A DNA stretch of 64,000 bases from Escherichia phage W22, in the sequence record PV159336; one strand, given 5' to 3'. Every line of letters begins with the position of its first letter. Position 1 is the stretch's first letter. The translations under genes were made by a program, and so were the position numbers. This document shows, piece by piece, positions 29,235 through 61,712 of the stretch. The notes beneath the pieces were generated by a model. It saw nothing but the letters and a program-made list of their open reading frames with translations. It did no database searches and was not told where the DNA came from.

Positions 29235-29237
29235 TAA

Positions 29238-29266: not shown

Positions 29267-29269
29267 ATC

Positions 29270-29701
29270 TTAATCAGTGAAAATTACGCTCACATCTTCT
29301 TTAGAGAAGAGTTTATGATCTTCGCCTTTTGTCTCAAGAGTTTCATACAGGTTAAGAAGTTCTGAAACATCTTTCTCTACCAGTTTCTTCAATGTTGCAA
29401 TTTTCTGTTTGCGACTCTTAATACGTTCAGCTACAACCTTACGTTGGTATCCAGCAGTACGATAACCTGAGAAAGTTACACCAGTAAGACTTGCAGTTAC
29501 AGGATCGTAGTGACGTTCAATCTGAAATTTATTAAAAGGTACAGCGTCATCACGAATAATCTTACCGCCATTACTTACTTGACGAAGACCAGTAACTTGT
29601 TCCAGTCGTGCCATAGAAATCTTTGGAGACAGACCAGAGTCCAAATTCATACCGTTGTTAATCAGTGCTTTCAGGGTGATTTTGCTGTTCATTGTACTCA
29701 T
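29270..29701 (-). CDS. hypothetical protein linked to DNA methyltransferase
   Basis: 143 aa; own strong RBS (GGAGGA) embedded in 3' end of MTase gene, 44-nt overlap. Confidence 0.45.
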   Translation of the reverse strand: MSTMNSKITLKALINNGMNLDSGLSPKISMARLEQVTGLRQVSNGGKIIRDDAVPFNKFQIERHYDPVTASLTGVTFSGYRTAGYQRKVVAERIKSRKQKIATLKKLVEKDVSELLNLYETLETKGEDHKLFSKEDVSVIFTD

Positions 29702-30389
29702 TTAGTCGTTCCTCCGCTTGCTTAAAAATATTTACATCGGCTTCACAGCCTAAGTATTCTCTACCTGTTAAAAGTGCCGCAACTTGTGTTGTTGCACTTC
29801 CAGAGAAGAAGTCTAAGACTACATCTCCTTCGTTGGTATGTATATTAATAAGGTCACAAAACAAAGTCAAGTGTTTTTGTGTTGGATGAAAACGATCTGC
29901 TCCTTGATAGATAGGATACTCAAACACACCCTTATGGTAGGAAGCATTGAAGGTTGGCTTCGAACCTTTAACACAAACAATAGCCATCTCTTTAGCGTTA
30001 CTAAGGTAGTTAACACCACTGTTGATGGGTACAGGGTTTGTTTTAATCCATTCAATAGTACGGAACATACGAAAACCAAGCGGTTCAAGGATTTCACGTA
30101 GCTCCTGGATCTTCCAGATATCATACCAAACTATGCAAGTACCACCTTTTCTAAGCACCCTATAGGCTTCTTTGAATACTTCTTTAAAGTAAGGAATATC
30201 TACAACGTCCCAGTCACCAAAGTTGTAAGATACACGGAATCTATCCGTATCTTTTCCAGTAGGCTCTCCAGATTGAAAATTTGTGTCACGAGAAATAGCA
30301 TATGGTGGGTCAGTAAGAATCAAATCTACACTATTGCTTTCGAGGGTTTGCAGGTAGTTTAATGCAGTGTTGTTTACAAATTCGCTCAT
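29658..30389 (-). CDS. DNA methyltransferase (beta-class N6-adenine/N4-cytosine, DPPY type)
   Basis: Catalytic motif LILTDPPYA near N-terminus and AdoMet-binding motif FFSGSATT near C-terminus (order IV then I = beta class). Confidence 0.75.
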   Translation of the reverse strand: MSEFVNNTALNYLQTLESNSVDLILTDPPYAISRDTNFQSGEPTGKDTDRFRVSYNFGDWDVVDIPYFKEVFKEAYRVLRKGGTCIVWYDIWKIQELREILEPLGFRMFRTIEWIKTNPVPINSGVNYLSNAKEMAIVCVKGSKPTFNASYHKGVFEYPIYQGADRFHPTQKHLTLFCDLINIHTNEGDVVLDFFSGSATTQVAALLTGREYLGCEADVNIFKQAEERLNEYNEQQNHPESTD

Positions 30390-37942: not shown

Positions 37943-38212
37943 CTAAAATGATTCGTTTGTCTCCATAATATATTGCATTTCCAAATCTTCCATATGTTTC
38001 TTAAATTGGTAAACAATTTCCGATGGGGAAATATCTATATCAAAAAGTTCTTTTGTACCAGAATAAAACCTAATACCGTCAACAATAAGTCCACCATAAT
38101 AATCCCAATCACTTTCTCGTGAGAAAGGATTAGGTTCTTCATAATAGTAATCTACTTCAACAATAATAGGTTCTTTATTATCTTGTTTATACTCAAAATC
38201 AAAAGTGTTCAT
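37943..38212 (-). CDS. hypothetical protein
   Basis: 89-aa acidic ORF coupled upstream of glycosyltransferase gene. Confidence 0.35.
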   Translation of the reverse strand: MNTFDFEYKQDNKEPIIVEVDYYYEEPNPFSRESDWDYYGGLIVDGIRFYSGTKELFDIDISPSEIVYQFKKHMEDLEMQYIMETNESF

Positions 38213-39156
38213 TATAAATCCTCGATAAGCAGTCTGCGGGTTTCATTTAAATCATCAATATTGTAGTTATCTCTTACATATTTAGCAAGAGCCAATCCTT
38301 TCTCAATACAAACATCAGGAGATTCGATTAAGTATTCTACAATATCTTTCCACTCTTTAACTGAATCAGCAAAGAAGATTAGATCTTTAAATTCTTCAGT
38401 ATAGTAGTTCTCTCGTGGAGAACAAACGAGTGGCAAACCTTTAGCACCAGCCTCAAGAATTTTTAAATTACTTTTGGCATTATTAAAATGATTATTTACT
38501 AATGGAGCTATGGAGATTTGATGACCATCGTATGCTTCCATATAACACTCATAAGGACGAATACCTTCATAAACACAATCTGGTTGAATCTCTTCTTTAA
38601 TTTGCAACCATTGAGCACTACTTAACTCTTCGTGATCTCTACGAAATCCACATAAAGTTAAATCTTTACCAAAAGCAGGAAGAATTGCTAAATCATGTTT
38701 ATGTGTTTCACTTCCCGCCCAAACCAGTGGGCTTTTAGAATAACGATCTTTAGTAAGAACAAACTGCCCTTCATCAAAAGGTAGTCCGTTAGGCACAATA
38801 TGTACATTATCATTGTATTGGCTTAATTCAACCTTTAATGCTGGAGTTGTTGTAGTTACAAGATCGCTTCTTTCAAGGAACCATTTTAGGTCATCTCGGA
38901 TTTGACTTTCAAATAATCCTTCCAGCATATGCCCTTCAGGAATAATTAAAGAATCATCCAGATCCATTACCAATTTAAACCCAAGTTGTTTAAGAGCCAG
39001 GAAACCTGGCTTTCCACGAGTTGGTACTCCATTGAATACAAAAATATTATGCTTAGGATTAATAGTCAGTTTGCGTTTATATGGCAAAATGATTCTATGA
39101 AAATCACATACACTATACCTTTCATGTCCACGTGTGTCAAGAATAATATTAGGCAT
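38212..39156 (-). CDS. glycosyltransferase, GT-B fold (GT4-like), paralog 1
   Basis: C-terminal KILEAGAKGLPLVCSP resembles GT4 donor-binding motif; clear paralog of adjacent gene. Confidence 0.5.
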   Translation of the reverse strand: MPNIILDTRGHERYSVCDFHRIILPYKRKLTINPKHNIFVFNGVPTRGKPGFLALKQLGFKLVMDLDDSLIIPEGHMLEGLFESQIRDDLKWFLERSDLVTTTTPALKVELSQYNDNVHIVPNGLPFDEGQFVLTKDRYSKSPLVWAGSETHKHDLAILPAFGKDLTLCGFRRDHEELSSAQWLQIKEEIQPDCVYEGIRPYECYMEAYDGHQISIAPLVNNHFNNAKSNLKILEAGAKGLPLVCSPRENYYTEEFKDLIFFADSVKEWKDIVEYLIESPDVCIEKGLALAKYVRDNYNIDDLNETRRLLIEDL

Positions 39157-39167
39157 ATGGCTCCTTG

Positions 39168-40181
39168 TTAAAGACTTTCAATAACTTGACGACGCAGTTC
39201 ATTGGCATCTGCAAGATTATAATTAAGACGAACGTGTTCTGCAAGCATCATACCACGATCTTCTGTGTATCTAGGGTTCCTCATTAGCTTGACAACTTCA
39301 TAATGCCAAGATGCTTTAGAGTCTGCATAAATAACAGCCTTTGCATCTACCGGATTGAAGTACGGCAGCACAGGAGAACAGATAATAGGAAGACCCTTTG
39401 CACCTGCTTCCAAAATCTTCAAATTGCTTTTACAGTTGTTGAAGTCATTATCTACCAGAGGAGCAATTGCAATACTGTGACCGTCATACACAGACATATA
39501 CTCACCTAAATTTTTAATAGCTGGTTTATACTGTGCATTTGGAATTTTACGTTTTACTTTAACCCACTCCGCAGTAGTTAGATACTGACTATTATTTCCA
39601 ACAGGTGCAGAAGGATACACTTCATACCCTGCAATTGTCAATAGCGTATCATCAAATGTGTTAGCTACAAGAGATAAATCAGGTTCATGGCTTGCTCCTC
39701 CAGCCCAAACGATAGGCGTGTCAGAATAACGGTCTTTTGTCAAAGTAAATTGACCTTCATCGTAAGGTAGTGCGTTTCTAATAACGACAACATTACGATT
39801 TAAATGACGAATTTTGTAAGCTAGGTATTCTGTTGTTACAGTAACAACATCTGCTAACTTAACCATCTCTACAATAGTCTTTGAGTGATTAGTAAATACG
39901 CCAGCCATATAATGTTCAGGATTAAGCGAATAAAAGTCATCTAAATCAACAATAATCTTAACACCTTGTGCCTTCAGGCGTTTAACTTCGTCTGATCCAC
40001 GAGAATACACTCTATTAAAAACTAAAACGTCTTTCTTAGGCTTAAACGTATTTCCCGCAAATGGCATTACAATACGATGGTAATCACAACCACTGCCTAA
40101 CTTATTATCACACTTAAGTACAGGAGTATTAGGATTTACCATATTTTTGAGCCTCCTCATAAGAGATAAAAGTTTTACCAT
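39168..40181 (-). CDS. glycosyltransferase, GT-B fold (GT4-like), paralog 2
   Basis: Shares blocks with 38212..39156 (LTKDRYS..P.VWAG, YDGH.I.IAPLV.N.FNN.KSNLKILEAGAKGLP); tandem duplication. Confidence 0.5.
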   Translation of the reverse strand: MVKLLSLMRRLKNMVNPNTPVLKCDNKLGSGCDYHRIVMPFAGNTFKPKKDVLVFNRVYSRGSDEVKRLKAQGVKIIVDLDDFYSLNPEHYMAGVFTNHSKTIVEMVKLADVVTVTTEYLAYKIRHLNRNVVVIRNALPYDEGQFTLTKDRYSDTPIVWAGGASHEPDLSLVANTFDDTLLTIAGYEVYPSAPVGNNSQYLTTAEWVKVKRKIPNAQYKPAIKNLGEYMSVYDGHSIAIAPLVDNDFNNCKSNLKILEAGAKGLPIICSPVLPYFNPVDAKAVIYADSKASWHYEVVKLMRNPRYTEDRGMMLAEHVRLNYNLADANELRRQVIESL

Positions 40182-40815
40182 TGCGAAGATCCTCCAGTGA
40201 TTGTTTATATTGTTCCCAGTTTACACCAATCCCCTGTTCTTTCTCTTCTTTTGACAGATTCGCAAAAGGTAAAGGGTTGTCTCCAAACACATCATCAGGA
40301 TGGATAAACGCCATAATTCGAATAGGACATGGTACGCCCTGAATACCTCGGTTCAAACCTGCTAGTGGAACGCGCTGAATCCACTCTGCATCTTCATATC
40401 CATAACCGTGGGTGTATGAGCGGAAATAGCCAGCTTTCTCAATAACTGCACGGGAATACATACCAAACTGGCACATACCTAGTTCCCAAATAACCACTTC
40501 ACCTTCAATACCTTTTACTTTATCTTTAAAGTATTCAGGCATACCAAAGAAATCCCAGCCATTTTCCTTAGCTTGTTTTACAAAATATGTTTCCCAACCT
40601 GGCACAACCGGATAGCAATCATCATCAAAAATAAACCAGTAATCATACCCTTCATCATAAAACTTTTTCATCAGTTCATTACGAGCATATGCAACACCTT
40701 TTCGTTCCCGATCATACTGTACAACAAAAGTAGCATTAGGATCAGTCACAAGATAATCTTTAAGAGGACGCTTACCTACAGTAATAACACCAACACCAAT
40801 TTTTGTATTTTCCAA
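40129..40815 (-). CDS. glycosyltransferase, GT-A fold (DXD motif)
   Basis: 228 aa; YDYWFIFDDDCYP (DXD) and downstream GYGYEDAEW motif. Confidence 0.5.
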   Translation of the reverse strand: MENTKIGVGVITVGKRPLKDYLVTDPNATFVVQYDRERKGVAYARNELMKKFYDEGYDYWFIFDDDCYPVVPGWETYFVKQAKENGWDFFGMPEYFKDKVKGIEGEVVIWELGMCQFGMYSRAVIEKAGYFRSYTHGYGYEDAEWIQRVPLAGLNRGIQGVPCPIRIMAFIHPDDVFGDNPLPFANLSKEEKEQGIGVNWEQYKQSLEDLRNGKTFISYEEAQKYGKS

Positions 40816-40824
40816 AATAACTCC

Positions 40825-41388
40825 TTAAATAATTTTATTCATGTCTTGACAATGTAAAAGGTGTGAAACAGCTTTTCTAGGATCATCATTACCTAAACGG
40901 TATGTGTGAAATAAATATAACCCACGTAGTAAACCTAGCCTTTTATTGTTAGCGTGTAATGCTTTAGAGAAAATTATATCAAACTGTATTGATCTTTCCT
41001 CAAAAGGGATTTCATTCCACAAACTCTTACGAAAGAGAAGAAAGAATCCTGCTAAGATAGCATCTGTAGGTACTTCCTCTATTGAGTTTCCCCATTCTAG
41101 ATGTGCTCTTTTTGCAATCTCAATGTGGTGTAATATATTTGGATCTTCACTTCTTTCATTATTAAATAATTGATATGTTGATCCCAGTCTATTACAAGAT
41201 GCACCAAGAACATCAAAATCAGGATTTGAACGGACTATTGATTCCAACCAAGCAGGTTGTTCTGGAAGAAGAAACATTGTATCAATGTCTCTTAGGCAAA
41301 TCCAACTATCTTCTGGTAAGACACTTATTGTGTCATTGATACCTTTTCCAATATCTCCAGAAAGATAGGGAGTTATGTGAAATATCAT
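40825..41388 (-). CDS. possible GT-A-like glycosyltransferase / hypothetical
   Basis: 187 aa; ICLRDIDTMF could be a DXD-type motif; weak. Confidence 0.3.
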   Translation of the reverse strand: MIFHITPYLSGDIGKGINDTISVLPEDSWICLRDIDTMFLLPEQPAWLESIVRSNPDFDVLGASCNRLGSTYQLFNNERSEDPNILHHIEIAKRAHLEWGNSIEEVPTDAILAGFFLLFRKSLWNEIPFEERSIQFDIIFSKALHANNKRLGLLRGLYLFHTYRLGNDDPRKAVSHLLHCQDMNKII

Positions 41389-42136: not shown

Positions 42137-42646
42137 TTAGCGATAGAATTGATGTTCTTTGTAGCGGTACACCAGAACCATATCTTTTTCCCAGTGTGCT
42201 CTTATTGTAGATTTTTTAAAGTATAATGCTCCTTTTGTAATATCTAATGCAATTCGTAATTCTGGAAAATGGTTATCGAGATAAAGTAGACGTTCTGCTA
42301 TAGCTTTAGCGTCTTTCCACTTATCGTGTTCCATAACGTTGAATGTCTTCGTGTAAGAGAATTGTCCTTTCTGAAACAAAACTTCTTTTATAGTATCAGG
42401 GAAATATGAATCTCTAGCCCTATTCAATACTACATTACCAACAGCAGACATACCGCGCTTTCCTTGATTACGACTTTCTGCATAGATTGCACAAGCTAAT
42501 AGATTTTCTTTACTATCACGCTTTGTACACTTGTGAACTACTTTAGCAGTTTTTACGTTTGCAGCTTCGGCTTGCGCCACAACAGGTGTAAATGTAAAAG
42601 CAGTTAAGGATAGTAACGCAATTGCGACAAAGGTTTTTATTGACAA
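42137..42646 (-). CDS. secreted cell wall hydrolase (SleB/Hydrolase_2-like), candidate endolysin
   Basis: N-terminal signal peptide (FVAIALLSLTAFTFTPVVAQA) and motif AIYAESRNQ...AVGNVVLNR typical of SleB-like hydrolases. Confidence 0.55.
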   Translation of the reverse strand: MSIKTFVAIALLSLTAFTFTPVVAQAEAANVKTAKVVHKCTKRDSKENLLACAIYAESRNQGKRGMSAVGNVVLNRARDSYFPDTIKEVLFQKGQFSYTKTFNVMEHDKWKDAKAIAERLLYLDNHFPELRIALDITKGALYFKKSTIRAHWEKDMVLVYRYKEHQFYR

Positions 42647-43366: not shown

Positions 43367-43390
43367 ATGCGCCCCGAAGGGCGCTATGAT
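43367..43390 (-). terminator. rho-independent terminator after TerD-like gene
   Basis: GCGCCC-CGAA-GGGCGC hairpin followed by T-rich tract on - strand. Confidence 0.45.
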
Positions 43391-43405: not shown

Positions 43406-44002
43406 TTACTCGAACCAATCGTCGCCAGCGCCAAACGCTTTAACTACATCGTAAATGTCAAGCCCAGCTTTACCTACACCATATGCTTTCAGTTTCCATT
43501 CGCTATCTTCTCGCACCAGGGAGGCAACGTGGCAAATGGTGTTACCTGCAAGTTCTGGAGCCAAGAAGTCAAAGTCCAGCAGTTCAACATTACGTTCATC
43601 ATCGAAGATTTTAAGGAAACCTTCGGTAGCGTGACCAAGGCGTTTCTTACCCGTTTCGTCATCAATAGTAATTACGAATGCAATTTCCTGTGCTTCAGCA
43701 GAGATATTATCCAGTGTAACATCAATCTGCTCCATCTGTCCTACACCATCACGAACATCTTCACCTGCAAAAGTAGAACGTTCAGGATCAAATTTCTGCG
43801 CGTAGCACACCAGGTGACGAGGAGACAACAGTTCCGGCAGACCAGATGCATTGTGTCGGCAAATCAGAGCACTAACATCCAGATCCAGTTTTTCGTTAGA
43901 TTTCCAAGAGAATTCCAGACGAATGCGTTTCAGTGCTGGTGCGATCTTTTTCAGAGAAACTTTTTCGCTAGAACCTTTTTTCAGGGAAATTTTCTGAGTC
44001 AT
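43406..44002 (-). CDS. terD: TerD-domain protein (tellurite-resistance TerD/TerZ/TerE family)
   Basis: 198 aa; MTQKISLKKGSSEKVSLKK..., LDLDVSALI, IAFVITIDDE, EWKLKAYGVGKAGL track the TerD domain along its whole length (compared with E. coli TerD from memory). Confidence 0.85.
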   Translation of the reverse strand: MTQKISLKKGSSEKVSLKKIAPALKRIRLEFSWKSNEKLDLDVSALICRHNASGLPELLSPRHLVCYAQKFDPERSTFAGEDVRDGVGQMEQIDVTLDNISAEAQEIAFVITIDDETGKKRLGHATEGFLKIFDDERNVELLDFDFLAPELAGNTICHVASLVREDSEWKLKAYGVGKAGLDIYDVVKAFGAGDDWFE

Positions 44003-44074
44003 AATTTATTATCTCCTTTGTTGTTAATTTACGTTGTCTATTTTACTAATCTTTTCTACAAAGTCAAGCGTTTT

Positions 44075-44869
44075 TTACGCTTTTGCTCCGAATTTTTTAA
44101 CCCACTCACCAAACTCTTCGGATAACAGTTTATCGTAAAGTTCTTCATCAGACAAGGACAAATCTGCAATACCGATAAAATCAACATTATCGTACTCTTT
44201 TGCCAAGTCTTTCAGGAATTTAAAGTTTGCATTACCTACACCAACCATAAACCAGTAAACAGGCGTATTGCGGTGTTTGTTCAGTAAGCTACGTACTGCT
44301 GAAGTATCCATGTTTTCCCCGTCAGTTTGGAAGAAAATCATTGCAGGAGTACGATCAACTTGTGCATCAGTATCTACAACCTGTTCTACAACAGTACGTG
44401 TTACTTCTACAAGTTCTTTTTTACCAGTTAGTTTAGCAAGGAAACCCTTAGCCGGGACTTCTTCATACTCAACGACTTCACGTGTAATATTTTTCATAGG
44501 TACACTACCGAAGTATGTATCATAGATCTCTTGCATTACTGGAGCATAAGCAGTACCACCGTTGATGCAAACATTAGACATGCAAGAGCCGACATAATCA
44601 TCATACACATCAGCCGTTGCAGGAGGCAGTTCAAAAGAAGAACTATTGAAAGCCCACATGTCAATCTGTGCATTATCATCAAACTTCATACCAAACGGCA
44701 GCAGTTTACCTACAAAATCACTAACAGTGCCATCACGATACAGCTCACACATACTACCCGAAATATCTAAGGCGCTACCGACACGAAGAACAACATCGTT
44801 AATCTTTTTCTTACGCAGAGATACAGTAAGAGTTTCTTGACGTTTTTTAAGACTGATTTTATTGGACAT
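44075..44869 (-). CDS. von Willebrand factor A domain protein (TerY/TerF-C-like)
   Basis: MIDAS motif DISGSM, then GGTAY and FFQTDGENMD; N-terminus ISLKKRQETLTVSLRKK echoes TerD first strand. Confidence 0.65.
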   Translation of the reverse strand: MSNKISLKKRQETLTVSLRKKKINDVVLRVGSALDISGSMCELYRDGTVSDFVGKLLPFGMKFDDNAQIDMWAFNSSSFELPPATADVYDDYVGSCMSNVCINGGTAYAPVMQEIYDTYFGSVPMKNITREVVEYEEVPAKGFLAKLTGKKELVEVTRTVVEQVVDTDAQVDRTPAMIFFQTDGENMDTSAVRSLLNKHRNTPVYWFMVGVGNANFKFLKDLAKEYDNVDFIGIADLSLSDEELYDKLLSEEFGEWVKKFGAKA

Positions 44870-45896: not shown

Positions 45897-46129
45897 TACA
45901 CATTCTCCTCTTTTACCAATTCCATCGTTGAACTATCAAAACCATCTTTAGAAGAATAGGTATAGACAGAACGTAGTTCTCGCAGGACAGTAAATACATT
46001 AGGATCATCTAACCAAGCATCCTGGAGGAGAACATAACGATCTTCATTGTCGTACTGGACAGCGATCATAGAACCAGACAGTTTGTAAATTTTAATATTC
46101 ATAATATATTGCTCCTTAAAGTAGACCAC
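45896..46129 (-). CDS. hypothetical small protein
   Basis: 77-aa ORF overlapping upstream gene end. Confidence 0.3.
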   Translation of the reverse strand: MVYFKEQYIMNIKIYKLSGSMIAVQYDNEDRYVLLQDAWLDDPNVFTVLRELRSVYTYSSKDGFDSSTMELVKEENV

Positions 46130-47219
46130 GTTTAACAGTTTGAATCATACCATCTTCAAGAGATTGCACTTCTTGAATATAATCAATACGAGCAGCACGG
46201 GCTTCAGTGTTGATTCGGTTAGTTTCTTCCAACATTTTAACTAAGTTTTCTTGATCGCGACGTAATGTTTCAATATCCAATACTTGACGATTAGCAAGTT
46301 GCGTAGCTTCAATTTGGTTTTGTGAAGCCAGATCACTACCCATTGCAATAGCAGCATTAAATTCATTCAGTACATTGTTCTGTGTATCGGCTGCTTTCTT
46401 CTGGCGTAGACTTTCAATATACATAGAAAAGTTTGCAGAGTAAGCAGGGATAACATTATTCACAATGTTACGTGCTGATCGCATCAAACTTGCAGATACT
46501 TTCTGCATACTTTGTACACGTGGCCCCATCTGAACACACAGTAAACGCAAGGCTTTCAGGTCTGCAATACGAATTTCAAGCAGATCCATAGTATCACGAG
46601 TACGTTGACGCTCTTCTACTTCATTTTCAGGTAGTGTATTAAGGCGAACTTCTTCTTTTTCATAAGTAGCTGTTAGAAGCTCTATATCCCTGTTTAAGCT
46701 AAGAGCATATTTTGCAATAGCCTCTTCTAAACGTTGCAGATATCGTAAAGAATCTTCTTCTTTTTTCAAGTCTGTTTGGAGTGTCTTTACCAAACCTTCA
46801 ATACGATTATTGATGGTGTCAAATTCACCAAACAAATCTTCTTTCATACCTAATACTTTCTTAACTAGTTTACCTAAGCCTTTAGATTGTTTAATAGAGT
46901 TAGGATCAAGTTGCTTTGCTTGCTTAATAAGTGCAGTTAAACGTTCACTCATTTCATCTCCCTGAGATGAACGCTGGTGTTTAAGCACTTCAGCATTAAG
47001 GTTACGAAGAGTAAGTCCTGCATCAGCACCAACTTGTTCAATCTCTTCACGAGACATTGGAGGCAGCATTTGTACAGGTCGTGCAACAGCAGGGGCATAT
47101 ACAGGGCTTGCATCCATAGCACTTGGAGCAAACAAAGACTTACTTTTTTCTGTTGTTGCCGTGAATACACTCATTTCAGACGGTTTGCTTTTTACGGCAC
47201 TGATAAAAGGACTGGACAT
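46116..47219 (-). CDS. TelA-like (toxic anion resistance) coiled-coil protein, tentative
   Basis: 367 aa, predominantly helical/coiled-coil; call rests largely on size, composition and neighbourhood with TerD/TerC/vWA. Confidence 0.4.
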   Translation of the reverse strand: MSSPFISAVKSKPSEMSVFTATTEKSKSLFAPSAMDASPVYAPAVARPVQMLPPMSREEIEQVGADAGLTLRNLNAEVLKHQRSSQGDEMSERLTALIKQAKQLDPNSIKQSKGLGKLVKKVLGMKEDLFGEFDTINNRIEGLVKTLQTDLKKEEDSLRYLQRLEEAIAKYALSLNRDIELLTATYEKEEVRLNTLPENEVEERQRTRDTMDLLEIRIADLKALRLLCVQMGPRVQSMQKVSASLMRSARNIVNNVIPAYSANFSMYIESLRQKKAADTQNNVLNEFNAAIAMGSDLASQNQIEATQLANRQVLDIETLRRDQENLVKMLEETNRINTEARAARIDYIQEVQSLEDGMIQTVKRGLL

Positions 47220-48174: not shown

Positions 48175-48780
48175 TTAACGACGACGTGAGCTACTAAAAC
48201 TACGTTTCGACGAAGAATAACTTTTCGAAGACTTACTATAAGAGCTAATAGGGCTTGAGTAAGACTTACGAGCAGAGTAATTACTATTCACTTTTGTTGT
48301 TGATGGGCGTGAATACGTTTGTACACTTTGCTGCTTAATTGTGTTTTGTTTAGTGGTTGTATATGTATTCCCTTGTTTATCATAAAAACTATGCTTTTGT
48401 GTTGTATATGCTTTACTGTTAGTTGTAGGAGCAGCGTTGTTATTAATAATTGTTGTATTGCTACCGCCATCTCTATAACCACCACCGCCACTATTACCAC
48501 TCAACATATGACCAAGAAGCATACCTGTAGCAAACTCACCTACACCAGAAGAACCACTGCCGCCTCCTTGCACAACAACTGTTGAAGGTTGTGCAGGTGC
48601 TGCTTGAACAACTTGAGGTGCAGGTTGATTTACATATTGTTCATCTACCATCTGATTTGGTGTTTGTTGGTAACGTTGGTTTTGTACATTTTCAGAATCA
48701 TCACAACCTACCAGCAATGCACTGCCTAAAACAACTGCAACAATAAAAGATTTAATGTTTTTCATTTGTAACCCTCTCAT
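48175..48780 (-). CDS. putative lipoprotein with low-complexity Q/P- and S-rich regions
   Basis: Signal peptide plus lipobox-like LLVGC; Gly-rich centre; S/K-rich C-terminus ending RRR. Confidence 0.45.
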   Translation of the reverse strand: MRGLQMKNIKSFIVAVVLGSALLVGCDDSENVQNQRYQQTPNQMVDEQYVNQPAPQVVQAAPAQPSTVVVQGGGSGSSGVGEFATGMLLGHMLSGNSGGGGYRDGGSNTTIINNNAAPTTNSKAYTTQKHSFYDKQGNTYTTTKQNTIKQQSVQTYSRPSTTKVNSNYSARKSYSSPISSYSKSSKSYSSSKRSFSSSRRR

Positions 48781-48997: not shown

Positions 48998-49975
48998 TTA
49001 AGCAACAGCCTGGTCTTCTTTTTCAGGGAAGATTAAACTTGCAATAACACCCAGCCCCAGAGTACCTAACACAATATACATACTGATCGTCGGATCAATG
49101 TGTGCTGGCAGGAAACTCACTTTTGCGTGCAGAGTTTCTGCAAACGGGTGATACATCAGTTTTACACCCACAAATACCAGGACTACGATAACTGCTTTCT
49201 CCAGATGAACCAAATATTTCAGTGCAACACTAAGGACAAAGAACAGAGCACGTAGACCTAAAATTGCACACAGCATTGAAGAAAATACAAGCAGAGGTTC
49301 TTGTGTCACTGCAATTACTGCTGGAACAGAGTCTACTGCAAAGATTACGTCAACCATTTCCATTACAAACACACAAACCAATGCAGGAGTTGCTACACGA
49401 ACACCATTTTTGATTGTGAAGAACTTCTCACCATCCATCTGATCAGATACAGGGAACAGCTTACGAACAATGCGAGTAGCCCAGTGTTTAGAGTAATCAA
49501 CTTCTGCGTCATTATCTCCAGCGAATACCATTTTAGCTGCACAGAAAAGGATGACCGCACCGAAGAAGATATTAACATACCAGCCCAAACTCAACAAGTA
49601 AGTACCTACTGCTACAAACACACCTCGGAAGACAATCGCACCTGCAATACCCCAAAGTAGAATCTTGTGTTGCAAGTGTGTACTTTTAATACCAAAACTT
49701 GCGAATACTGCCACAAATACTACTAAGTTATCTACAGAAAGAGATTTCTCCAACACATACCCACTCAAGAACAAGCTCGCAAAATCAGCACCGTGTTGGA
49801 AGTATACAAAACCATAGTAGGCTAATGATACCCCAATCCAGAAAATTGACCAGCCAATTGCAGATTTAAATGAAATTTCTTTGTTTTCCCTGTGTCCAAA
49901 GAAATCAATACAAATCGACAAGACTAAAATACCCACTAAAACAACCACATCAATAATTGGGAAACCCAGTTGCAT
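48998..49975 (-). CDS. terC: TerC-family integral membrane protein
   Basis: 325 aa, multiple TM helices; signature motifs LEKSLSVDN and second-repeat FAVDSVPA characteristic of TerC family. Confidence 0.8.
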   Translation of the reverse strand: MQLGFPIIDVVVLVGILVLSICIDFFGHRENKEISFKSAIGWSIFWIGVSLAYYGFVYFQHGADFASLFLSGYVLEKSLSVDNLVVFVAVFASFGIKSTHLQHKILLWGIAGAIVFRGVFVAVGTYLLSLGWYVNIFFGAVILFCAAKMVFAGDNDAEVDYSKHWATRIVRKLFPVSDQMDGEKFFTIKNGVRVATPALVCVFVMEMVDVIFAVDSVPAVIAVTQEPLLVFSSMLCAILGLRALFFVLSVALKYLVHLEKAVIVVLVFVGVKLMYHPFAETLHAKVSFLPAHIDPTISMYIVLGTLGLGVIASLIFPEKEDQAVA

Positions 49976-50531: not shown

Positions 50532-51248
50532 TTATTTCAGTTTGTAAACAATTACATTTAAACCTTTGTTTACTAGAGTTTCTTCGATCATAAGTTTTAC
50601 AATATTCCAAGAACCTCCAGCCAAACCACAACCAAGCATTGGTAAACCTACAATTTTACCGCCTGAAGATACAACATCGTCTCCCATACTATCTAACGCA
50701 TTGTAGATAGCTTCATAATTCAGGTCACGCTTACCTTCCTCACGACGACTATAACCATATTGTCCATATAAATTATAAATTGTCAAATTGTTTTCTGTAT
50801 ACTTAGTAAACGTACCTAATTTTTTATAATCACCACGTTTAGTGGCACAATCTGCTTTAAACGCACCAGGCCACTTGCTTTTAATTTTTGGTGCAATACC
50901 ACTACCCATAGTGCAAAAACAGTTACAGCAGTGTGCTATAGCGTCTATATCGCCTCTCTCGGCTGCTGCTAAAAGATCACCGTATACCTCAATGATACCT
51001 GCTGGATAACTTGTTACAATTTCATCTTCCCAGTACATTTGCTCTACACCACCGATCAGTGCAAAGTTTTGTGTAATGCGATCATCAATATAATTAAGAC
51101 CTGAAACATACACAGCATATTCATCCTGTGCTGTAATGCCTTGTACACGAATTCTTAAGACACCATCTTTATCTGTTGCTACACGCCCAAAATCTTTTTC
51201 TGTAATATTGGTGATAGGATCTCCGAAAGTCGTCACTTTATTAGACAT
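50532..51248 (-). CDS. macro domain protein (ADP-ribose binding/processing)
   Basis: DAIAHCCNCFCTMGSGIAPKI and VGLPMLGCGLAGGSW resemble macro-domain blocks; start taken at internal ATG 51248 overlapping PRTase stop. Confidence 0.5.
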   Translation of the reverse strand: MSNKVTTFGDPITNITEKDFGRVATDKDGVLRIRVQGITAQDEYAVYVSGLNYIDDRITQNFALIGGVEQMYWEDEIVTSYPAGIIEVYGDLLAAAERGDIDAIAHCCNCFCTMGSGIAPKIKSKWPGAFKADCATKRGDYKKLGTFTKYTENNLTIYNLYGQYGYSRREEGKRDLNYEAIYNALDSMGDDVVSSGGKIVGLPMLGCGLAGGSWNIVKLMIEETLVNKGLNVIVYKLK

Positions 51249-52098
51249 AATAATCCCCTTTAACATTAGATTTGTTGATAATGTTGCTTTCAAAAAATTG
51301 ACGCAGGAAATCAAAGTTCTCTTTGTATTTTTCAATATTATTGTAACCTTCTGCAAGGCAACCAAAGAACAGTTGTTCTACATAATACAAAGGAAGTTGT
51401 GAAAGTGCAATTTTAAAATCAACTTCGCTTTGACTCATTAGATACTTAATAGGACGAACCAAACATTTAGCATCAGTTTCTTGCTTAATCATTTTAATAA
51501 AAGCTGCCAGGTTATTGATATAGTTGAAGTTAAGTGCAGCTTCGGTGTTGGCTTCTGTACCTTCATACTTTGCAAAGTACAGGAAAAACGTATCGTTTTC
51601 AACACCTTCTTTGTCTAAAATTTCAATAAGTTTTTCTTCGTGTGTTCCTGTAATATTAACATCATCAATGAAAATCAGAGTTTTATTACCCCAGAAATCA
51701 CGATTGATAGAGAAAGTGTCACCATCGATCAAAGCCTTACGATCTTCTTTGCTAAGAAATCCATAATCATTGATATAACTCACTTTACGATGAACGATAT
51801 CCCACTCTACTGCTTTACCTCCTTTGATAGAGATTAGGTAGTTGAGGTGATCTACAAAATGTTCAGATAACACTGTAGCTGCATTTTTCACATAGTTATA
51901 TGGAGATGGAATAACAACAAAACTTTCATTTACTAGTCGTTCTTCATATTTAGAAAAGAAACTTTCAGCCAGAATGCGTCCCATTCTTTTTGCTGCCTGG
52001 TTACTACCAAACTTTAGTTTGGAATAATCTGCAATGTTAAATTTTGCTTCCTTCAGGTTAGTAAAAGTATTAGCAAAATGTTGAATTTGATTACGCAT
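51241..52098 (-). CDS. phosphoribosyltransferase (type I PRTase fold) domain protein
   Basis: PRPP-binding motif TLIFIDDVNITGTHEE (hydrophobic-DD-hydrophobic-x-TG); 285 aa with uncharacterised C-terminal half. Confidence 0.55.
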   Translation of the reverse strand: MRNQIQHFANTFTNLKEAKFNIADYSKLKFGSNQAAKRMGRILAESFFSKYEERLVNESFVVIPSPYNYVKNAATVLSEHFVDHLNYLISIKGGKAVEWDIVHRKVSYINDYGFLSKEDRKALIDGDTFSINRDFWGNKTLIFIDDVNITGTHEEKLIEILDKEGVENDTFFLYFAKYEGTEANTEAALNFNYINNLAAFIKMIKQETDAKCLVRPIKYLMSQSEVDFKIALSQLPLYYVEQLFFGCLAEGYNNIEKYKENFDFLRQFFESNIINKSNVKGDYYV

Positions 52099-52747
52099 TA
52101 ATAAGTTCCTCTTTTTTAAGTTTAGCCAACAAGTCTTCTGGATTAATAATATGACAGAACTTCATCCCTATGTCAACAGCTTTTCCATCATAAATCAAAC
52201 TATCTCCAACGTGTAAAATCTCCTCTGGTGCGAGATCAAACGTTACCATTTCATCAAAAGAGAGTTTAAAAAACCTAGGATCTGGTTTACACAAGCAAAA
52301 CTCATCAGAAAAATGCATAAAGTCAAATGGTAATTTTGTTAAGCCAGAATATACAGCTAAGAAACTACCTGGTACAAAATTAGTATTGCTCTTAATACTC
52401 AAAGAATAGATTGAACTTAGCTCTTCCAACTTCTTGCAAAGCTCAGGGTTCAATATTGGAGGATGTTTTATAAACATTGCTAAACAGTCTCTTTTTAACC
52501 CATCTACTTTATCAAGATCAATGTTCAAACGAGTAGAAAGTGTTTCCCAAGCATTCCTAGACGTTCCACAAATGCCTTTTTCTGCTTTTAAATCCAGGAG
52601 AGTTTTTACCTCTTTATATACAGTAGCTGCTTCTGCCTCAGAACAAGAGGCATACTCGGCAATAACCTTGTTGCGTTCTTCTGCATACAAAGGATTAGCA
52701 GTAATAAGAGTATTCCATACATCAAAAGAAATATGCTTAACAGTCAT
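52091..52747 (-). CDS. HAD-superfamily hydrolase
   Basis: Motif I HISFDVWNTLI (DxxxT(L), dehalogenase-like variant) and motif IV HVGDSLIYD; start set at ATG 52747 with GGAGGA RBS. Confidence 0.55.
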   Translation of the reverse strand: MTVKHISFDVWNTLITANPLYAEERNKVIAEYASCSEAEAATVYKEVKTLLDLKAEKGICGTSRNAWETLSTRLNIDLDKVDGLKRDCLAMFIKHPPILNPELCKKLEELSSIYSLSIKSNTNFVPGSFLAVYSGLTKLPFDFMHFSDEFCLCKPDPRFFKLSFDEMVTFDLAPEEILHVGDSLIYDGKAVDIGMKFCHIINPEDLLAKLKKEELINA

Positions 52748-52749
52748 TT

Positions 52750-52905
52750 TTAATCCTCCGTCCAAAAGAATATCATCTGCTTAATTTTATTGATCTCTTG
52801 ATGTAGTAACTTTCCAGCATGTGATTGATCTTTAATATTGATAGCAAGAATTTCAAGCTCCGTTAGTTTTTCTTGGATAGCTTTATATTCATCATCTGTA
52901 AGCAT
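52750..52905 (-). CDS. small hypothetical protein (51 aa), not in ORF track
   Basis: ATG at 52905 to TAA at 52750-52752; stop abuts HAD RBS; coiled-coil-like sequence. Confidence 0.25.
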   Translation of the reverse strand: MLTDDEYKAIQEKLTELEILAINIKDQSHAGKLLHQEINKIKQMIFFWTED

Positions 52906-54335: not shown

Positions 54336-54806
54336 TTAGTCAGATTCCCAAATGTTGTCTTTCTTAACCCACATTCGTTGATTATCTGAACCTCTATAAC
54401 GTTTCGTTGTTGGTTGATTCATATCATACTTACCATCTATCACTATGTCAACCAGTTTTTTAATTTTCTCTGGAATTTCTTCAAAAAGATATCCTGTATA
54501 TAAGACAATATCTTTTTTGTTTCCAAAACAATCTCTTACCTTCTCAAGAACATACTCTACAGTGTCAATGTTCTCTTTGTCAAGAGGTTCACCACCTAAA
54601 ACTGTTAATCCTTTAATGAAAGGTCGAGATAAATCTTCCAAGATAAGATCTAATGTTTCAGCAGTGAACTCTTGTCCGTAATTATACGACCAGGCTTTCT
54701 GGTTAAAGCAGCCACGGCAACCGTGGCTACAACCGCTCACCCACAAAGAGCATCTTACACCGTCACCGTTGAGCATGTCAACAGGTTCATATCCGGCGTA
54801 ATTCAA
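54336..54806 (-). CDS. nrdG: anaerobic ribonucleotide reductase activating protein (radical SAM)
   Basis: CSHGCRGC (CxxxCxxC) near N-terminus; 156 aa; overlaps NrdD stop. Confidence 0.8.
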   Translation of the reverse strand: MNYAGYEPVDMLNGDGVRCSLWVSGCSHGCRGCFNQKAWSYNYGQEFTAETLDLILEDLSRPFIKGLTVLGGEPLDKENIDTVEYVLEKVRDCFGNKKDIVLYTGYLFEEIPEKIKKLVDIVIDGKYDMNQPTTKRYRGSDNQRMWVKKDNIWESD

Positions 54807-56602
54807 AAATGTTTCTCCCTTTCTAGTACCTCTTGCATTTTACCTTTGTTATAAGGGCGAGAGTTAGGGGCAGAAAGGTATCCTGACACTCTTCTGATCA
54901 CAGATATGGATTCTTCTTCATGATTACCACAACTTGGACACTCGAAGCCTTTAGCTGTTGCCTTAAATTCACCATGAAAACCACATTTGAAACACTGATC
55001 TACAGGTTGGTTCACGCCAAAATAAGGAATTTTATTGTAGGCATAATCTACAAGAGTTTCCAGTGCTTGCAAGTTATTTTTAAGGTTTGGTGTTTCTACA
55101 TAACCTATGTTCCCACCATTACTAATTTGTGCAAAACCTTCCTCATAATCCCACTTTTGGAACGGGGTAGTGTGCATCCATACAGGTTGATGGAAAGAGT
55201 TTGTCAAGTAGTCACGATCAATAGAGCCAGGATAGCGATCATTTAACGCTTTGGCAAATTTATAGCACAAGGATTCTGCTGGTGTTCCATACAAACTAAA
55301 AGCTAAACCAGAACGTTCTTTAAATGTGCAACAGATATCCTTCATATATTGAAGGATGTTTTTACCCATTGCTTTTGGATTGGTGTTATTTGGGTATAAA
55401 ATCTCCATAGCTTCTGCTAAACCTACATAACCGATACTAATAGAGGCATAACCACCTTCAAATAGTTTACCAATCTCTTCATTAGCTTCTAGTCGAGCTA
55501 AAGCACCTTCCATAAACAATGTAGGGTTTTGAGATGCTTTGGTATGTCTAATACGGTTAACACGTAGCATATGTGCCTTATACGCCATCTCCATATGTTG
55601 TTCCAACAGTTCAGTAAATAAGATGCCCTTTTCACGGGACTCTGCTGCAATGATAGGTAAGTTTAAAGAAACTACGCCTAAGTTGAAACGACCATCATAT
55701 TTTTCACCTTGCTCTGTTGCATAGTATGACAAGAAACTACGGCAACCCATGCTTGTGACGCGACCATCTGAAGATCCTGTAACTTCTTTGTTTAAAGGTA
55801 CAGAGATAAAATCAGGATAAATGCGTTCAGCACAACACTCCATTGCCAGTTGCTTCAAATCATAGTTTGGATCGCCAGCTTTCATGTTAACACCATCTTC
55901 CAAGAAGAAGATAACTTTAGGAAACACAGGAGTTACCCTATCTTTTCCTAATCCTTGTTTGTGCACCATTAGGTAGTTTTTAGTGATCATTCTACCAAAA
56001 GCAGAGGTATCCAAACCTAAACTAATTGTTATAAAAGGTGACTGACCATTTACACTCATTAGAGTGTTCACCTGGTAGATTAAAGTTTGCATTGCATCAT
56101 AGACCTGTTTATCTACCATACGCATAGCAATATCATAATCGCCAACATCGGCATATATTTTATTAAAACTTGCTTTAACGTATTGACTAAGCCCAGTATC
56201 AACATGTGCACAAGTTTGTCCACCATATTGGCTAGAGGCTACTGCTTGAATAATTTGAGTTAGGACAGTAGTCGCTACACCGATAGATTTTGGTTTTTCA
56301 ATATGTGCATTACCAATACGGAAACCGTTCTCAAGCATATCTTGGTAATTTACCAGGCAACAATTAGTTAAAGGTGAGAGTAAATAATCTAAATCGTGAA
56401 TGTGACCATACCCACTTTTATGCCATTCTGCTAAATCTTCAGGTAAAATATGGGTCATTGCCATGTGCTTGCTTAGGATACCTGCTAGTAAATCTCGGTG
56501 AGTATTAACAATCATTGCAGGTTTGTTTGCATTTTCACGAGTAAATTCTTCGGATGTTTGTTCGAGGAATCCGATTACATCCTCATATAGTTTTTGGGTC
56601 AT
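54803..56602 (-). CDS. nrdD: anaerobic ribonucleoside-triphosphate reductase (class III)
   Basis: 599 aa; C-terminal Zn ribbon CFKCGFHGE...CPSCG and glycyl-radical motif RVSGYL. Confidence 0.85.
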   Translation of the reverse strand: MTQKLYEDVIGFLEQTSEEFTRENANKPAMIVNTHRDLLAGILSKHMAMTHILPEDLAEWHKSGYGHIHDLDYLLSPLTNCCLVNYQDMLENGFRIGNAHIEKPKSIGVATTVLTQIIQAVASSQYGGQTCAHVDTGLSQYVKASFNKIYADVGDYDIAMRMVDKQVYDAMQTLIYQVNTLMSVNGQSPFITISLGLDTSAFGRMITKNYLMVHKQGLGKDRVTPVFPKVIFFLEDGVNMKAGDPNYDLKQLAMECCAERIYPDFISVPLNKEVTGSSDGRVTSMGCRSFLSYYATEQGEKYDGRFNLGVVSLNLPIIAAESREKGILFTELLEQHMEMAYKAHMLRVNRIRHTKASQNPTLFMEGALARLEANEEIGKLFEGGYASISIGYVGLAEAMEILYPNNTNPKAMGKNILQYMKDICCTFKERSGLAFSLYGTPAESLCYKFAKALNDRYPGSIDRDYLTNSFHQPVWMHTTPFQKWDYEEGFAQISNGGNIGYVETPNLKNNLQALETLVDYAYNKIPYFGVNQPVDQCFKCGFHGEFKATAKGFECPSCGNHEEESISVIRRVSGYLSAPNSRPYNKGKMQEVLEREKHF

Positions 56603-58937: not shown

Positions 58938-61712
58938 TTAGTTTACCAGTTTATTTATGTCTGGTAAAAGATTTATTTCACCTAAGAAATCACCTTCACC
59001 TTCCTCTAGCCAACTCTCATATGCTTGTGCATGATTATAGTTACCATCAAAAGAATCTGCAACAAATTTTTCTACAGTTTTTCGAGATGTGCCAGCGCCA
59101 AATACACCAAGTTTAATACCATTGATCGGTAAAGTAGGGCTTGTTGGTACTTTCTCTGTTGCAACACGGTTGATATCTATAATCTCCTGTACGGTTGTAT
59201 TCCATTGTAAGCATTTAACACAACGGGTGTGCGCTACATACAGTAGGTTTCGCTCTGCCTCTTCTAGTCCTACCCATTCACCAGTCTTTTTATCATAGTT
59301 GGAAGGAAAATCATTAGCAACAATAACCTGATCCCACTCCAAACCTTTAGACTTATGTGCTGTAGTCAGTGTGACTTTTGCTGTAGGAGAATTTCTATGC
59401 GTTCTAAGTGTATGTGCTATAGTGTTTGCCTTACCAGAAACTACAATGTTTAACAAGCGTTTAGCATCTGGATCAGCCTCTGCACACTCAACAAATTCAT
59501 TCCAGTCTGCGTAAGGTAATACAGTTTCATGTTTTACTTTCTCAATATCTCCTCTCCGAAGAGCATTAACACTATCTACCATAGAGATAAAATCCCTGGT
59601 ATCTACGTTAATAATAATTTCTTCCCCATCTGCAATACGATCCATTGCCTCCATAAGCAAGGTTAAATTCTTGCGAAAGATGATAGTGTAAGGTTTTGTA
59701 TAGTCTACAACATCTGATTTGTAGCTACCTACTACAGTATCAAAGCCTTTACCAACCAAAGGATGACGCAAAGGTTCTTTATCACTTAAAATCATATTCG
59801 CAATGTTTGCCACTTTGGGGCCAAAACGGAAGCAAGCAGTTAATGGAAGCTCTGCCCCATACTTAGCTGTTTCAATCATCATATTAGAGCTACCTCTAAA
59901 TTGATAAATGCAGTTATGGCTAAGAATTTCATTGCCAAAGAAGTTAGCAGTATCCTCTACTTCAATATCATAATAGATACCATCACTATCTACAATGTCC
60001 ACAATTTCTTCTGCCGTTACAGTATCACCATCTTTTACTAACACAGACATGCCTTTAAACAAACCCGCTGCCGGAATTAAATTATATTTGGCAGTGTTCA
60101 CAGAGGACATGCATTCTTTTAAAGATGCAAACGGAACTATTTCAAGGATCTTTTGTGCAAAACTCAATGCTTCACGATAAGAATTGAAATATTTACGTAC
60201 ACGGTAACGACCTTCCAATTTAGCAACACTTACGCTTACACCTGCTTCAATGAGTGAGGCATAGATTGGCATTTCACTTTCTGTCCACTCAAAGCTAACT
60301 TGTGTTCCTTTACAACCTTGTGCTCGCAAAGTCACTGTTAACATTTTTCTTGCATCTACTGTACAATTGATGCTGTGCCAATGTGGATAAGCAAAATGAT
60401 AATCTTTATCCTCTAAAAGTTTAAAACCATTTTGTCCGAATTGTTCAAAGATATTGTTGATCCTTTCTTGATTAATACCGCGTGAACTTGCCTCAAATAC
60501 ACAAGTAGGAATGCCATATTGTAAACTGTATGCCATTTCTTTTTCCATAGCAGCTTCACGGTTTTCAACAATATCCAACACCCACAACTTCTGTGCTTTT
60601 TCAGAACGTGTACGTTGCCCCAGTTTAGAAAAACCTTCTTTATCATCGAATTTGTTAGTGATCCCTACTCGGAAACCTAAATCTTTTCTCCACATTAGGT
60701 ATACCACCATCTGATCATCTTTCAGAACATAAGGTGAAGCCCAAATACGATGGTTATGTGTCATATCTAAAGTCTTACCTTTAGCAGTAATAATATTCCT
60801 ACCTTTTGTACGTGTAGATAAAGTTTTATTTGTTACTTTTCTAAATGTAACTTTACCGTTAGAATAAGACTCTACCTTATCACCGATTTGCAGGTCTTTC
60901 ATTGTAACCTGACCATTTTCGGTATTAAGTACCGTGTTTTCTGACACACATTGGAATTCATCACCAACTACCACAATTTGTTTGGCAGATTTAGCATTCC
61001 GCAGAATAGACAAGAATGCAGGGTTAACATCCTGGAATTCATCCCCAAAAATAATGTCATAACCAAGATCAGCACCAGACAATTCAAACAATTTTACATA
61101 GGTGTCATGCGTCATCAAAGTATCTGTGTTAGGGTCAATGCGCTCTCGCCACAATTGTTTTGCATACTTAACTACTTCTGTAATTAGTTTGTGTTCGTTA
61201 ATACCTTTTCTTTTAATATCTGCAAGATGTACACTAGGAAAATGTTTACGGCTGATAAAAGGATCATCCGAAAATTCAAACTTACCTACGGTTTGCTTGA
61301 TCATTAAACCAATCATAGCACGAGTTAAAAGTGTTTTCCCTCGTTTATCAATAAGATTATTAATCTTAAATTTCTTTGCTATCTCACTACCTGTACCTGC
61401 AACGTTAACATACTGTCCTTCTGGTCGTGACAGTTTTGCACGTAAACGATGATCCAGGAATTGATAGCAAATGGAATGCAATGTACGGCATTCTACATTT
61501 GGTGGCATCTTACGCCGTGCTTCTTCTGCCATGCTTTTATTGAAAGCTAAGTAAAGAATGCGATCTTCTGTACTGTTAGCCAGCAAATAAAGTGTTGACG
61601 TTTTTCCTGATCCAGATTTAGCTTGGATAGTTAAAAACCGATGATCTGGAAAAGCCTCCTTAATAGCTGTTTGCTCTTCTGTTGGAGTAAAACTCAACTC
61701 TTTCTTAGCCAT
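58938..61712 (-). CDS. UvrD/PcrA/Rep-like SF1 DNA helicase, intein-containing
   Basis: Walker A AKSGSGKT, motif II FGDEFQD, split motif III VVGDEFQ / CIYQFRGSS, motif VI TAHKSKGLEWDQV; start moved to ATG 61712. Confidence 0.75.
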   Translation of the reverse strand: MAKKELSFTPTEEQTAIKEAFPDHRFLTIQAKSGSGKTSTLYLLANSTEDRILYLAFNKSMAEEARRKMPPNVECRTLHSICYQFLDHRLRAKLSRPEGQYVNVAGTGSEIAKKFKINNLIDKRGKTLLTRAMIGLMIKQTVGKFEFSDDPFISRKHFPSVHLADIKRKGINEHKLITEVVKYAKQLWRERIDPNTDTLMTHDTYVKLFELSGADLGYDIIFGDEFQDVNPAFLSILRNAKSAKQIVVVGDEFQCVSENTVLNTENGQVTMKDLQIGDKVESYSNGKVTFRKVTNKTLSTRTKGRNIITAKGKTLDMTHNHRIWASPYVLKDDQMVVYLMWRKDLGFRVGITNKFDDKEGFSKLGQRTRSEKAQKLWVLDIVENREAAMEKEMAYSLQYGIPTCVFEASSRGINQERINNIFEQFGQNGFKLLEDKDYHFAYPHWHSINCTVDARKMLTVTLRAQGCKGTQVSFEWTESEMPIYASLIEAGVSVSVAKLEGRYRVRKYFNSYREALSFAQKILEIVPFASLKECMSSVNTAKYNLIPAAGLFKGMSVLVKDGDTVTAEEIVDIVDSDGIYYDIEVEDTANFFGNEILSHNCIYQFRGSSNMMIETAKYGAELPLTACFRFGPKVANIANMILSDKEPLRHPLVGKGFDTVVGSYKSDVVDYTKPYTIIFRKNLTLLMEAMDRIADGEEIIINVDTRDFISMVDSVNALRRGDIEKVKHETVLPYADWNEFVECAEADPDAKRLLNIVVSGKANTIAHTLRTHRNSPTAKVTLTTAHKSKGLEWDQVIVANDFPSNYDKKTGEWVGLEEAERNLLYVAHTRCVKCLQWNTTVQEIIDINRVATEKVPTSPTLPINGIKLGVFGAGTSRKTVEKFVADSFDGNYNHAQAYESWLEEGEGDFLGEINLLPDINKLVN
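59913..60950 (-). mobile_element. intein (346 aa) inserted in helicase motif III
   Basis: Starts Cys (CVSENTVLNTENG), block B TLDMTHNH, C-terminal YYDIEVEDTANFFGNEILSHN followed by extein Cys. Confidence 0.55.

Follow-up and report, generated by a model that had tools for sequence, protein, structure and literature searches.

The question raised by this locus is how two proteins encoded side by side in Escherichia phage W22, one with a TerD domain and one with a von Willebrand factor A (vWA) domain, are related to one another, and what the additional sequence carried by the vWA protein contributes. The window analyzed here is a stretch of 64,000 nucleotides (sequence record PV159336), in which positions 43406 to 44869 are filled by two open reading frames (ORFs), both on the minus strand, as are all features within them described below. 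The first (44075..44869) encodes a stand-alone TerF-type vWA protein of 264 aa, assigned by its match to PF10138 and its predicted vWA fold, and the second (43406..44002) encodes a TerD-domain protein of 198 aa belonging to a divergent phage clade, assigned by matches to PF02342 and to the solved structure 2KXT. An initial annotation of this DNA had placed the vWA gene downstream of the TerD gene, but since both ORFs are on the minus strand with vWA at the higher coordinates (vWA 44869..44075, TerD 44002..43406), vWA is the upstream gene with respect to transcription. The two are separated by a gap of 72 nt and are distinct polypeptides in the order vWA then TerD, rather than TerF proper, in which TerD and vWA share one polypeptide. 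A sigma-70-like site (TTGACT-16-TAAAAT) is present within the spacer at 44067..44040. The pair itself is not new, both genes being already annotated and belonging to a phage Ter module of a known kind; what looks like the one new point of this analysis, and a modest lead, is a stalk-borne, position-independent MinD-like motif in the TerF-type vWA family.

The vWA protein matched PF10138 (vWA-TerF-like, 'vWA found in TerF C terminus') with an E-value of 1e-38 and 133.8 bits against a cut-off of 29.4, the match falling in two stretches divided by an insertion, and weaker matches to VWA and Copine were also observed. The proposal that this is a vWA protein of the TerF type was thus upheld, the protein falling in a Pfam family defined on the TerF C-terminus. 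Alignment of 56 homologues confirmed that all residues of the metal ion-dependent adhesion site (MIDAS) noted initially (DISGS...T...D) are present and conserved. The DxSxS motif (D35 I S37 G S39; 44753..44767) was invariant at D35, S37, G38 and S39, the GGT motif containing MIDAS Thr106 (44552..44560) was nearly invariant at G104, G105 and T106, and the TDG motif containing MIDAS Asp183 (44318..44326) was invariant at D183 and G184. Thr106 is substituted in an insert-less subgroup of the family represented by P0057 and P0060. An AlphaFold2 model of the protein displayed vWA topology with a mean predicted local distance difference test score (pLDDT) of 89.8 and a predicted template modelling score (pTM) of 0.80. 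When this model was used to search structures with Foldseek, RGLG1/2, copine-type BON1, the CMG2 vWA domain and integrin I domains were nearest, with a probability of 1.00 to vWA structures, and the nearest viral model was the vWA protein of phage ME3. A sequence-profile search likewise gave copine/BONZAI1 and RGLG as the nearest solved structures (6KXK, E-value 3e-6).

The segment dividing the PF10138 match is a 53-aa insertion at residues 123–175 (44345..44503), located between helix alpha3 and strand beta4 and predicted to form a long two-stranded beta-hairpin stalk. An insertion of approximately 50 aa between MIDAS elements had been described previously, and the segment was found to be 53 aa as quoted, with the MIDAS Thr on its N-terminal side and the MIDAS Asp on its C-terminal side. 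In the AlphaFold2 model it consisted of strands at residues 125–139 and 151–165 with pLDDT values of 76–91, flanked by alpha3 at residues 109–120 and beta4 at residues 176–182. The insertion is family-wide and not peculiar to the window protein, being present at variable length (0 to ~55 residues) in most stand-alone family members and absent from classic plasmid TerF and from the P0057/P0060 subgroup. The two segments that flank a motif at the tip of the insertion co-vary strongly in length (Spearman 0.92, n=115; 0.88 on 65 distinct length pairs), and because of this co-variation the insertion fits a stalk that lengthens and shortens symmetrically.

The tip of this predicted stalk carries the sequence KGFLAKLTGKK (residues 141–151; 44417..44449), which resembles the membrane-targeting sequence (MTS) of MinD and was modelled by AlphaFold2 as a short helix at residues 143–148 (GFLAKL). 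The consensus of the tip across the family is G[FL][FL]x[KRG][LM]FG[GK], also written GF[FL]xKLFGK, and the core motif is kept across members that are merely 25–40% identical. The E. coli MinD membrane-targeting sequence is KGFLKRLFGG (PMC5471200), and the window tip KGFLAKLTGK matches it at 7/10 positions. With a strict pattern, the motif was located in the insertion only in at least 105/199 stand-alone members, at the N-terminus only in 4 and at both positions in none; judged by eye, the tip motif is present in many more members than these 105. In insert-less members a MinD-like motif was observed at the extreme N-terminus (MGFFGFMKKG, MGLFDLFKKQ, MGLFDGIF, MGFMSNLFGKK and MGFLEKINFGKK), and in family member P0064 it was located in the beta5-alpha5 loop (KKGFFARVFGG). 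The MinD-like motif is therefore known at three positions in the family, namely the insertion tip, the extreme N-terminus and the beta5-alpha5 loop, and a short conserved motif relocating in this manner behaves like an autonomous targeting module. From the match to MinD, the relocation of the motif and the location of TerC and TelA at the membrane, we infer that the MinD-like tip is a membrane tether. The hydrophobic moment fails to single out the tip within the window vWA protein, and the argument rests on conservation of the motif in the family together with its changing position, not on hydrophobic moment.

The partner TerD protein matched PF02342 positions 3–178 of 187 over residues 5–180 (E-value 5e-28; 98.2 bits against a cut-off of 25.3), and the solved TerD structures 2KXT (E-value 9e-15) and 3IBZ matched over the same residues, so that the end-to-end domain match reported initially holds for residues 5–180 of 198. 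It is nevertheless a divergent protein, with only 22 word-sharing homologues and ~30% identity to bacterial TerDs. Its N-terminal hairpin KISLKKGSSEKVSLKK (residues 4–19; 43946..43993) aligns to strands beta1-beta2 of solved TerD. Both proteins had been described as metal-binding, a statement that needs qualifying for TerD, in which the Ca2+ loop is shortened and less acidic. As given in PMC8779313, citing Pan et al. 2011, the first Ca2+ site of Klebsiella TerD (Ca1) comprises residues 40, 41, 42, 78, 79 and 89 and the second (Ca2) residues 29, 82, 84 and 88. Alignment against Klebsiella TerD indicated that 5/6 Ca1 positions are retained in the phage clade (D40, L41 and D42, D82 as the counterpart of D78, and E91 as the counterpart of E89) with N79 replaced by Val. 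Two of the four Ca2 positions are lost, G82 falling inside a two-residue deletion and the acidic side chain of D88 being replaced by Met. The loop itself, GEDVRDGVGQME at residues 80–91 (43730..43765), is a degenerate form of the canonical GDNRTGEGDGDDE, which is reduced to GEDVR--DGVGQME in the phage clade. The phage TerD has thus probably kept one Ca2+ site and lost the second. Phage-clade TerD proteins also possess an acidic and aromatic C-terminal tail, FG(A/G)xxxW(F/Y)(E/ECP) (43409..43435, minus strand), which reads GAGDDWFE in the window protein and is absent from bacterial TerDs; that this tail docks onto a partner, perhaps as the ligand of a MIDAS, is pure speculation.

Natural fusions of TerD and vWA exist in their thousands and, together with the constant co-occurrence of the two, argue for functional coupling of TerD and vWA. 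The explanation that best accounts for the locus as a whole, and which we regard as moderately probable, is a phage Ter stress-response module comprising HAD, PRTase, macro-domain, TerC/Alx, TelA, vWA and TerD proteins encoded on one strand, with the vWA protein as a membrane-tethered adaptor. According to this model the vWA protein would be positioned close to the membrane, the alpha3-beta4 hairpin stalk presenting KGFLAKLTGKK so that the tip could dip into the cytoplasmic leaflet of the inner membrane beside TerC and TelA. Through its MIDAS metal the vWA protein would bind, with dependence on a divalent cation, an acidic residue on another protein, for which TerD and TelA are possible candidates. 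TerD, keeping one Ca2+ site while the other is degraded, would act as the sensor of a cation or ligand. Most likely, such a module would protect or remodel the cell envelope during infection. Roles suggested for the Ter systems of plasmids and phages, and candidates here as well, are metal homeostasis, exclusion of superinfecting phages, and resistance to colicins or xenobiotics. That TerF-type vWA proteins are more generally prokaryotic and phage counterparts of copines, acting as MIDAS adaptors that a mobile MinD-like motif anchors to the inner membrane, is a still tentative proposition. If true, it would provide a concrete, testable sub-membrane architecture for the long-enigmatic Ter systems, which give resistance to phage, colicin and tellurite, and the MinD-like motif could explain recruitment of soluble Ter components to TerC and TelA at the membrane.

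Several observations weigh against this model. A fixed TerD-vWA interface was looked for in an AlphaFold2 model of the natural fusion P0060, used as a stand-in for the TerD-vWA complex, and no support was found because the model, with its confidently predicted domains, had a pTM of only 0.54 and a disordered linker; a regulated interface is not contradicted by this result. The helical hydrophobic moment of the window tip is 0.19, compared with 0.38 for the family consensus and 0.45 for MinD, and the tip of the window phage clade is less hydrophobic than the consensus, with Thr in place of the second Phe. The MinD membrane-targeting sequence is C-terminal whereas the window motif is internal, at the tip of a hairpin, and the vWA protein is no MinD homologue. 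The tip motif could just as well serve for docking to a partner protein.

If so, the tip would be a short linear peptide docking not onto lipid but onto another component of the module (TelA, the cytoplasmic face of TerC, or TerD), with the stalk acting as a spacer. Such a role is consistent with the conservation and position independence of the motif and with co-variation of the stalk arm lengths, as well as with the vWA gene always being accompanied by TelA, TerC or TerD and with the weak amphipathicity of the tip in the window phage clade. It is less easily reconciled with the near-identity of the motif to a proven lipid-binding sequence, the MinD MTS, or with the flanking basic residues, which are typical of anionic-lipid binding. 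The N-terminal variants of the motif, moreover, are taken by us to resemble the classic MGLFD-type amphipathic membrane helices of the PspA/Vipp1 kind, and this was also counted against protein docking, which we consider rather unlikely.

An earlier reading of the locus concerned not the insertion but the vWA N-terminus, which was suggested to be a relic or mimic of the first TerD strand, derived from a TerF-type fusion; as a rival explanation this would have it pair with TerD by beta-strand complementation. The segment in question, KISLKKRQETLTVSLRKKK (residues 4–22; 44804..44860), is basic, contains two hxLxK motifs in which L7, K9, L18 and K20 are invariant or nearly so, and is a predicted alpha-helix. 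The resemblance to TerD is genuine at the level of the strings: the N-terminal sequence quoted initially for vWA was found exactly as written, alignment of MSNKISLKKRQETLTVSLRKK (vWA) against MTQKISLKKGSSEKVSLKK (TerD) indicates that both proteins start M-x-x-K-I-S-L-K-K and have a second VSL-x-K motif, and the echo is also seen in other lineages, for example in L006 (vWA MTISLEK, TerD MSISLEK). When a 56-sequence vWA profile was compared with a 15-sequence TerD profile by hhalign, the best local alignment was exactly that of the two N-termini (vWA 4–36, TerD 4–35; P 4e-4, probability 35%). The echo therefore stood at the level of string similarity and of profiles, but the pairwise match was weak: Smith-Waterman alignment against composition-preserving shuffles gave p ~0.02 when the N-termini were compared and 0.15 over the complete proteins, barely exceeding the shuffles and too weak to serve as proof of homology. 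The hydrophobic residues of the vWA segment additionally alternate in a strand-like manner, with a beta moment of 0.35 compared with an alpha moment of 0.09, a point in favour of the earlier reading.

The interpretation of this echo as a TerD strand was not sustained, as motif position, predicted structure, spacing and codons all differ. The vWA-TerF-like family comprised 2348 cluster representatives at E < 1e-3, and in nearly all of the ~200 members examined 1–4 hxLxK motifs were present ahead of vWA strand beta1. Where TerD and vWA are naturally fused (P0060, P0063, Klebsiella TerF and others), the hxLxK motif follows a complete TerD domain plus linker, and because of this the splitting of a fusion would not leave a TerD N-terminus at the start of vWA. 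AlphaFold2 predicted a helix in two independent models with pLDDT ~90; in the window vWA protein it spans residues 7–20, with mean pLDDT of 75 for residues 1–10 and 92 for residues 11–20, and in fusion P0060 the equivalent segment forms a helix at residues 219–235 behind a disordered linker at residues 193–216. In the same P0060 model the true TerD N-terminus is a beta-hairpin with strands at residues 3–5 and 10–12. The spacing of vWA hxLxK motifs is mostly 11 residues (65/152 successive pairs) with Gly between motifs in 13/152, whereas TerD motifs are spaced by 8 or 10 residues with a Gly-containing turn in all TerDs sampled, and vWA members with multiple copies contain heptad-like repeats such as VNLEKHV, VNLSKTI and VNLSKKN. 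DNA alignment further revealed that the 5' ends of the vWA and TerD genes use different codons, ruling out recent duplication or gene conversion between them. Given these differences we consider the relic or mimic improbable, and from the models and conservation we infer that the N-terminal helix is an integral, family-wide part of the vWA-TerF-like domain and not a copy of a TerD strand. Since its hydrophobic residues alternate in a strand-like manner, the segment might still be a chameleon, although we judge this doubtful, and the more specific suggestion that the TerD-like hSLxK pair is a chameleon able to quit the helix and add a strand to the TerD sandwich is more doubtful again. This check removes an attractive but wrong evolutionary story. 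The least credible alternative, that the insertion is a variable loop which has no function and is simply tolerated, and that TerD and vWA are mere neighbours with no physical coupling, can draw on the insertion length of 0 to ~55 residues and its absence from some members including classic plasmid TerF, but is made highly improbable by conservation of the core motif, its reappearance elsewhere in insert-less members, the symmetric indels in the two arms and the natural fusions in their thousands.

The membrane-tethered adaptor model places the vWA protein within a larger set of genes, and additional Ter components were identified on the minus strand of the window. A TelA homologue is encoded at 46116..47219 (PF05816, E-value 4e-34) and a TerC/Alx-type integral membrane protein at 48998..49975 (PF03741, E-value 1e-38; TIGR03718, 322.8 bits against a cut-off of 246.4). 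Two Ter-associated metabolite enzymes were also present, a PRTase_3 (ComF-like) protein at 51241..52098 (PF15610, E-value 1e-41) and a HAD phosphatase at 52091..52765 (PF00702, 26.6 bits against a cut-off of 26.4, with matches to HAD-IA families). Directly downstream of the PRTase gene, a macro-domain protein with likeness to the DarG antitoxin macro domain (PADLOC, E-value 1.5e-13) is encoded at 50532..51365; from the listed TTG start this ORF overlaps the PRTase gene, and the start annotated in phage vB-Eco-KMB37 is further downstream. Between TerC and TelA a 201-aa Ser/Gly/Gln-rich protein (48175..48780) has a lipoprotein-like N-terminus MKNIKSFIVAVVLGSALLVGC with the lipobox LVGC. No Pfam match was obtained for this protein and its PHROG matches were to families of unassigned role only; the protein is possibly a part of the Ter module that resides in the envelope. 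The clustering of TerC, TelA, TerD and vWA with PRTase and HAD identifies the locus as a Ter system, although TerB, ATP-grasp and C-C lyase were not found among the 20 window ORFs scanned (between 42137 and 61751). A different assignment, to the TerY-P defence triad (TerY vWA, PP2C and kinase), was rejected because neither the vWA nor the TerD protein had a match in PADLOC or NCBIfam, and no kinase or PP2C domain was present in these 20 scanned ORFs.

These genes correspond to the Ter stress-response gene set of Anantharaman, Iyer and Aravind (2012) to the extent that this is summarised in PMC7824862. Phage Ter operons contain TerD, TerC, TerF and TelA, with PRTase and HAD in fuller versions (Iyer et al. 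2021, PMC7824862), and TelA and the TerF vWA have been proposed to build sub-membrane structures directed against superinfecting phages or xenobiotics (PMC7824862). The same Ter cluster has been reported in Klebsiella phage phiKp34 (PMC8386662). A core of TerC, TelA, vWA and TerD is conserved in unrelated phages and bacteria, occurring in the order TerC-TelA-vWA-TerD on a 340-kb phage-like contig and TelA-vWA-TerC-TerD on another contig, and in Paenibacillus as vWA-TerB-TerDx4-TerC followed by C-C lyase, PRTase, StiP, HAD and ATP-grasp.

The DNA of this region is 98–99% identical to that of phi92-like/ECGD1-like E. coli myophages of the Stephanstirmvirinae, and the vWA protein is 100% identical in several phi92-like phages and 99.6% identical to phi92 gp173. 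In phage vB-Eco-KMB37 the TerD gene is annotated as 'tellurite resistance protein, terD family' and the vWA gene as 'vWA domain protein; vWA found in TerF C-terminus'. A vWA homologue was present in 182 records of the phage collection, including Caulobacter, Brevundimonas and Rhizobium phages and Acinetobacter phage ME3. Five records labelled 'Campylobacter phage' (MG065639, MG065645, MG065656, MG065689 and PQ529420) share 98–100% identity with the E. coli phage region described here, which points to contamination or a wrongly assigned host, and in PQ529420 the vWA gene is labelled 'HNH endonuclease', probably an annotation error. In Klebsiella plasmid CP050276 (L002, 9661..10901) terF appears to be split into two overlapping ORFs, one of 223 aa for TerD and one of 251 aa for vWA, representing either a frameshift/pseudogene or a sequencing error.

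Directly 3' of the TerD stop codon a GC-rich hairpin with a perfect stem, GCGCCC-UUCG-GGGCGC (43369..43384, minus strand), was observed, and the minus-strand T tract 3' of it is weak; it is a possible terminator or mRNA-stabilising 3' hairpin. Further from the pair, four ORFs in a row at 38212..41388 (minus strand) carry a glycosyltransferase annotation in phage vB-Eco-KMB37, which is 99% identical, and adjoin a cell-wall hydrolase gene (42137..42646; Pfam Hydrolase_2). An anaerobic ribonucleotide reductase NrdD (599 aa) and a radical-SAM activase are encoded at 54336..56602 (minus strand), immediately upstream of an AAA ATPase and the Ter-associated enzymes, and a 937-aa UvrD/Rep-type helicase at 58938..61751 (minus strand) contains an intein (Intein_splicing and Hint matches, residues ~267–613). 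Cumulative GC skew peaked near 28 kb (about 28000..30000) and then fell, consistent with a switch of the predominant coding strand.

Amongst known systems, TerF of the plasmid or chromosomal terZABCDEF operon is similar to the window vWA protein in family, in MIDAS and in possession of hxLxK motifs before beta1, the corresponding segment of Klebsiella TerF being ISLEKK..LISLAKKASISLAKHK. In TerF, however, TerD is fused to a C-terminal vWA domain, whereas the window vWA protein stands alone, upstream of a separate TerD, and carries both the 53-aa predicted stalk and the MinD-like tip that classic TerF and P0060-type fusions lack. The phage Ter operons of Acinetobacter ME3, Caulobacter jumbo phages and Klebsiella phiKp34 contain the same gene set, with vWA proteins that are direct homologues of the one described here. 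The window phage differs from jumbo phages in being a phi92-like E. coli phage of 146–149 kb, and unlike those operons its Ter genes are interspersed with small ORFs of unassigned role and one lipoprotein-like ORF. The window TerD has the same fold over residues 5–180 as Klebsiella pneumoniae TerD (2KXT), at ~29% identity, the Klebsiella protein binding two Ca2+ ions. Copines are eukaryotic membrane-binding vWA proteins, but whereas they reach the membrane via C2 domains, the window vWA protein would do so through an amphipathic motif borne on a hairpin.

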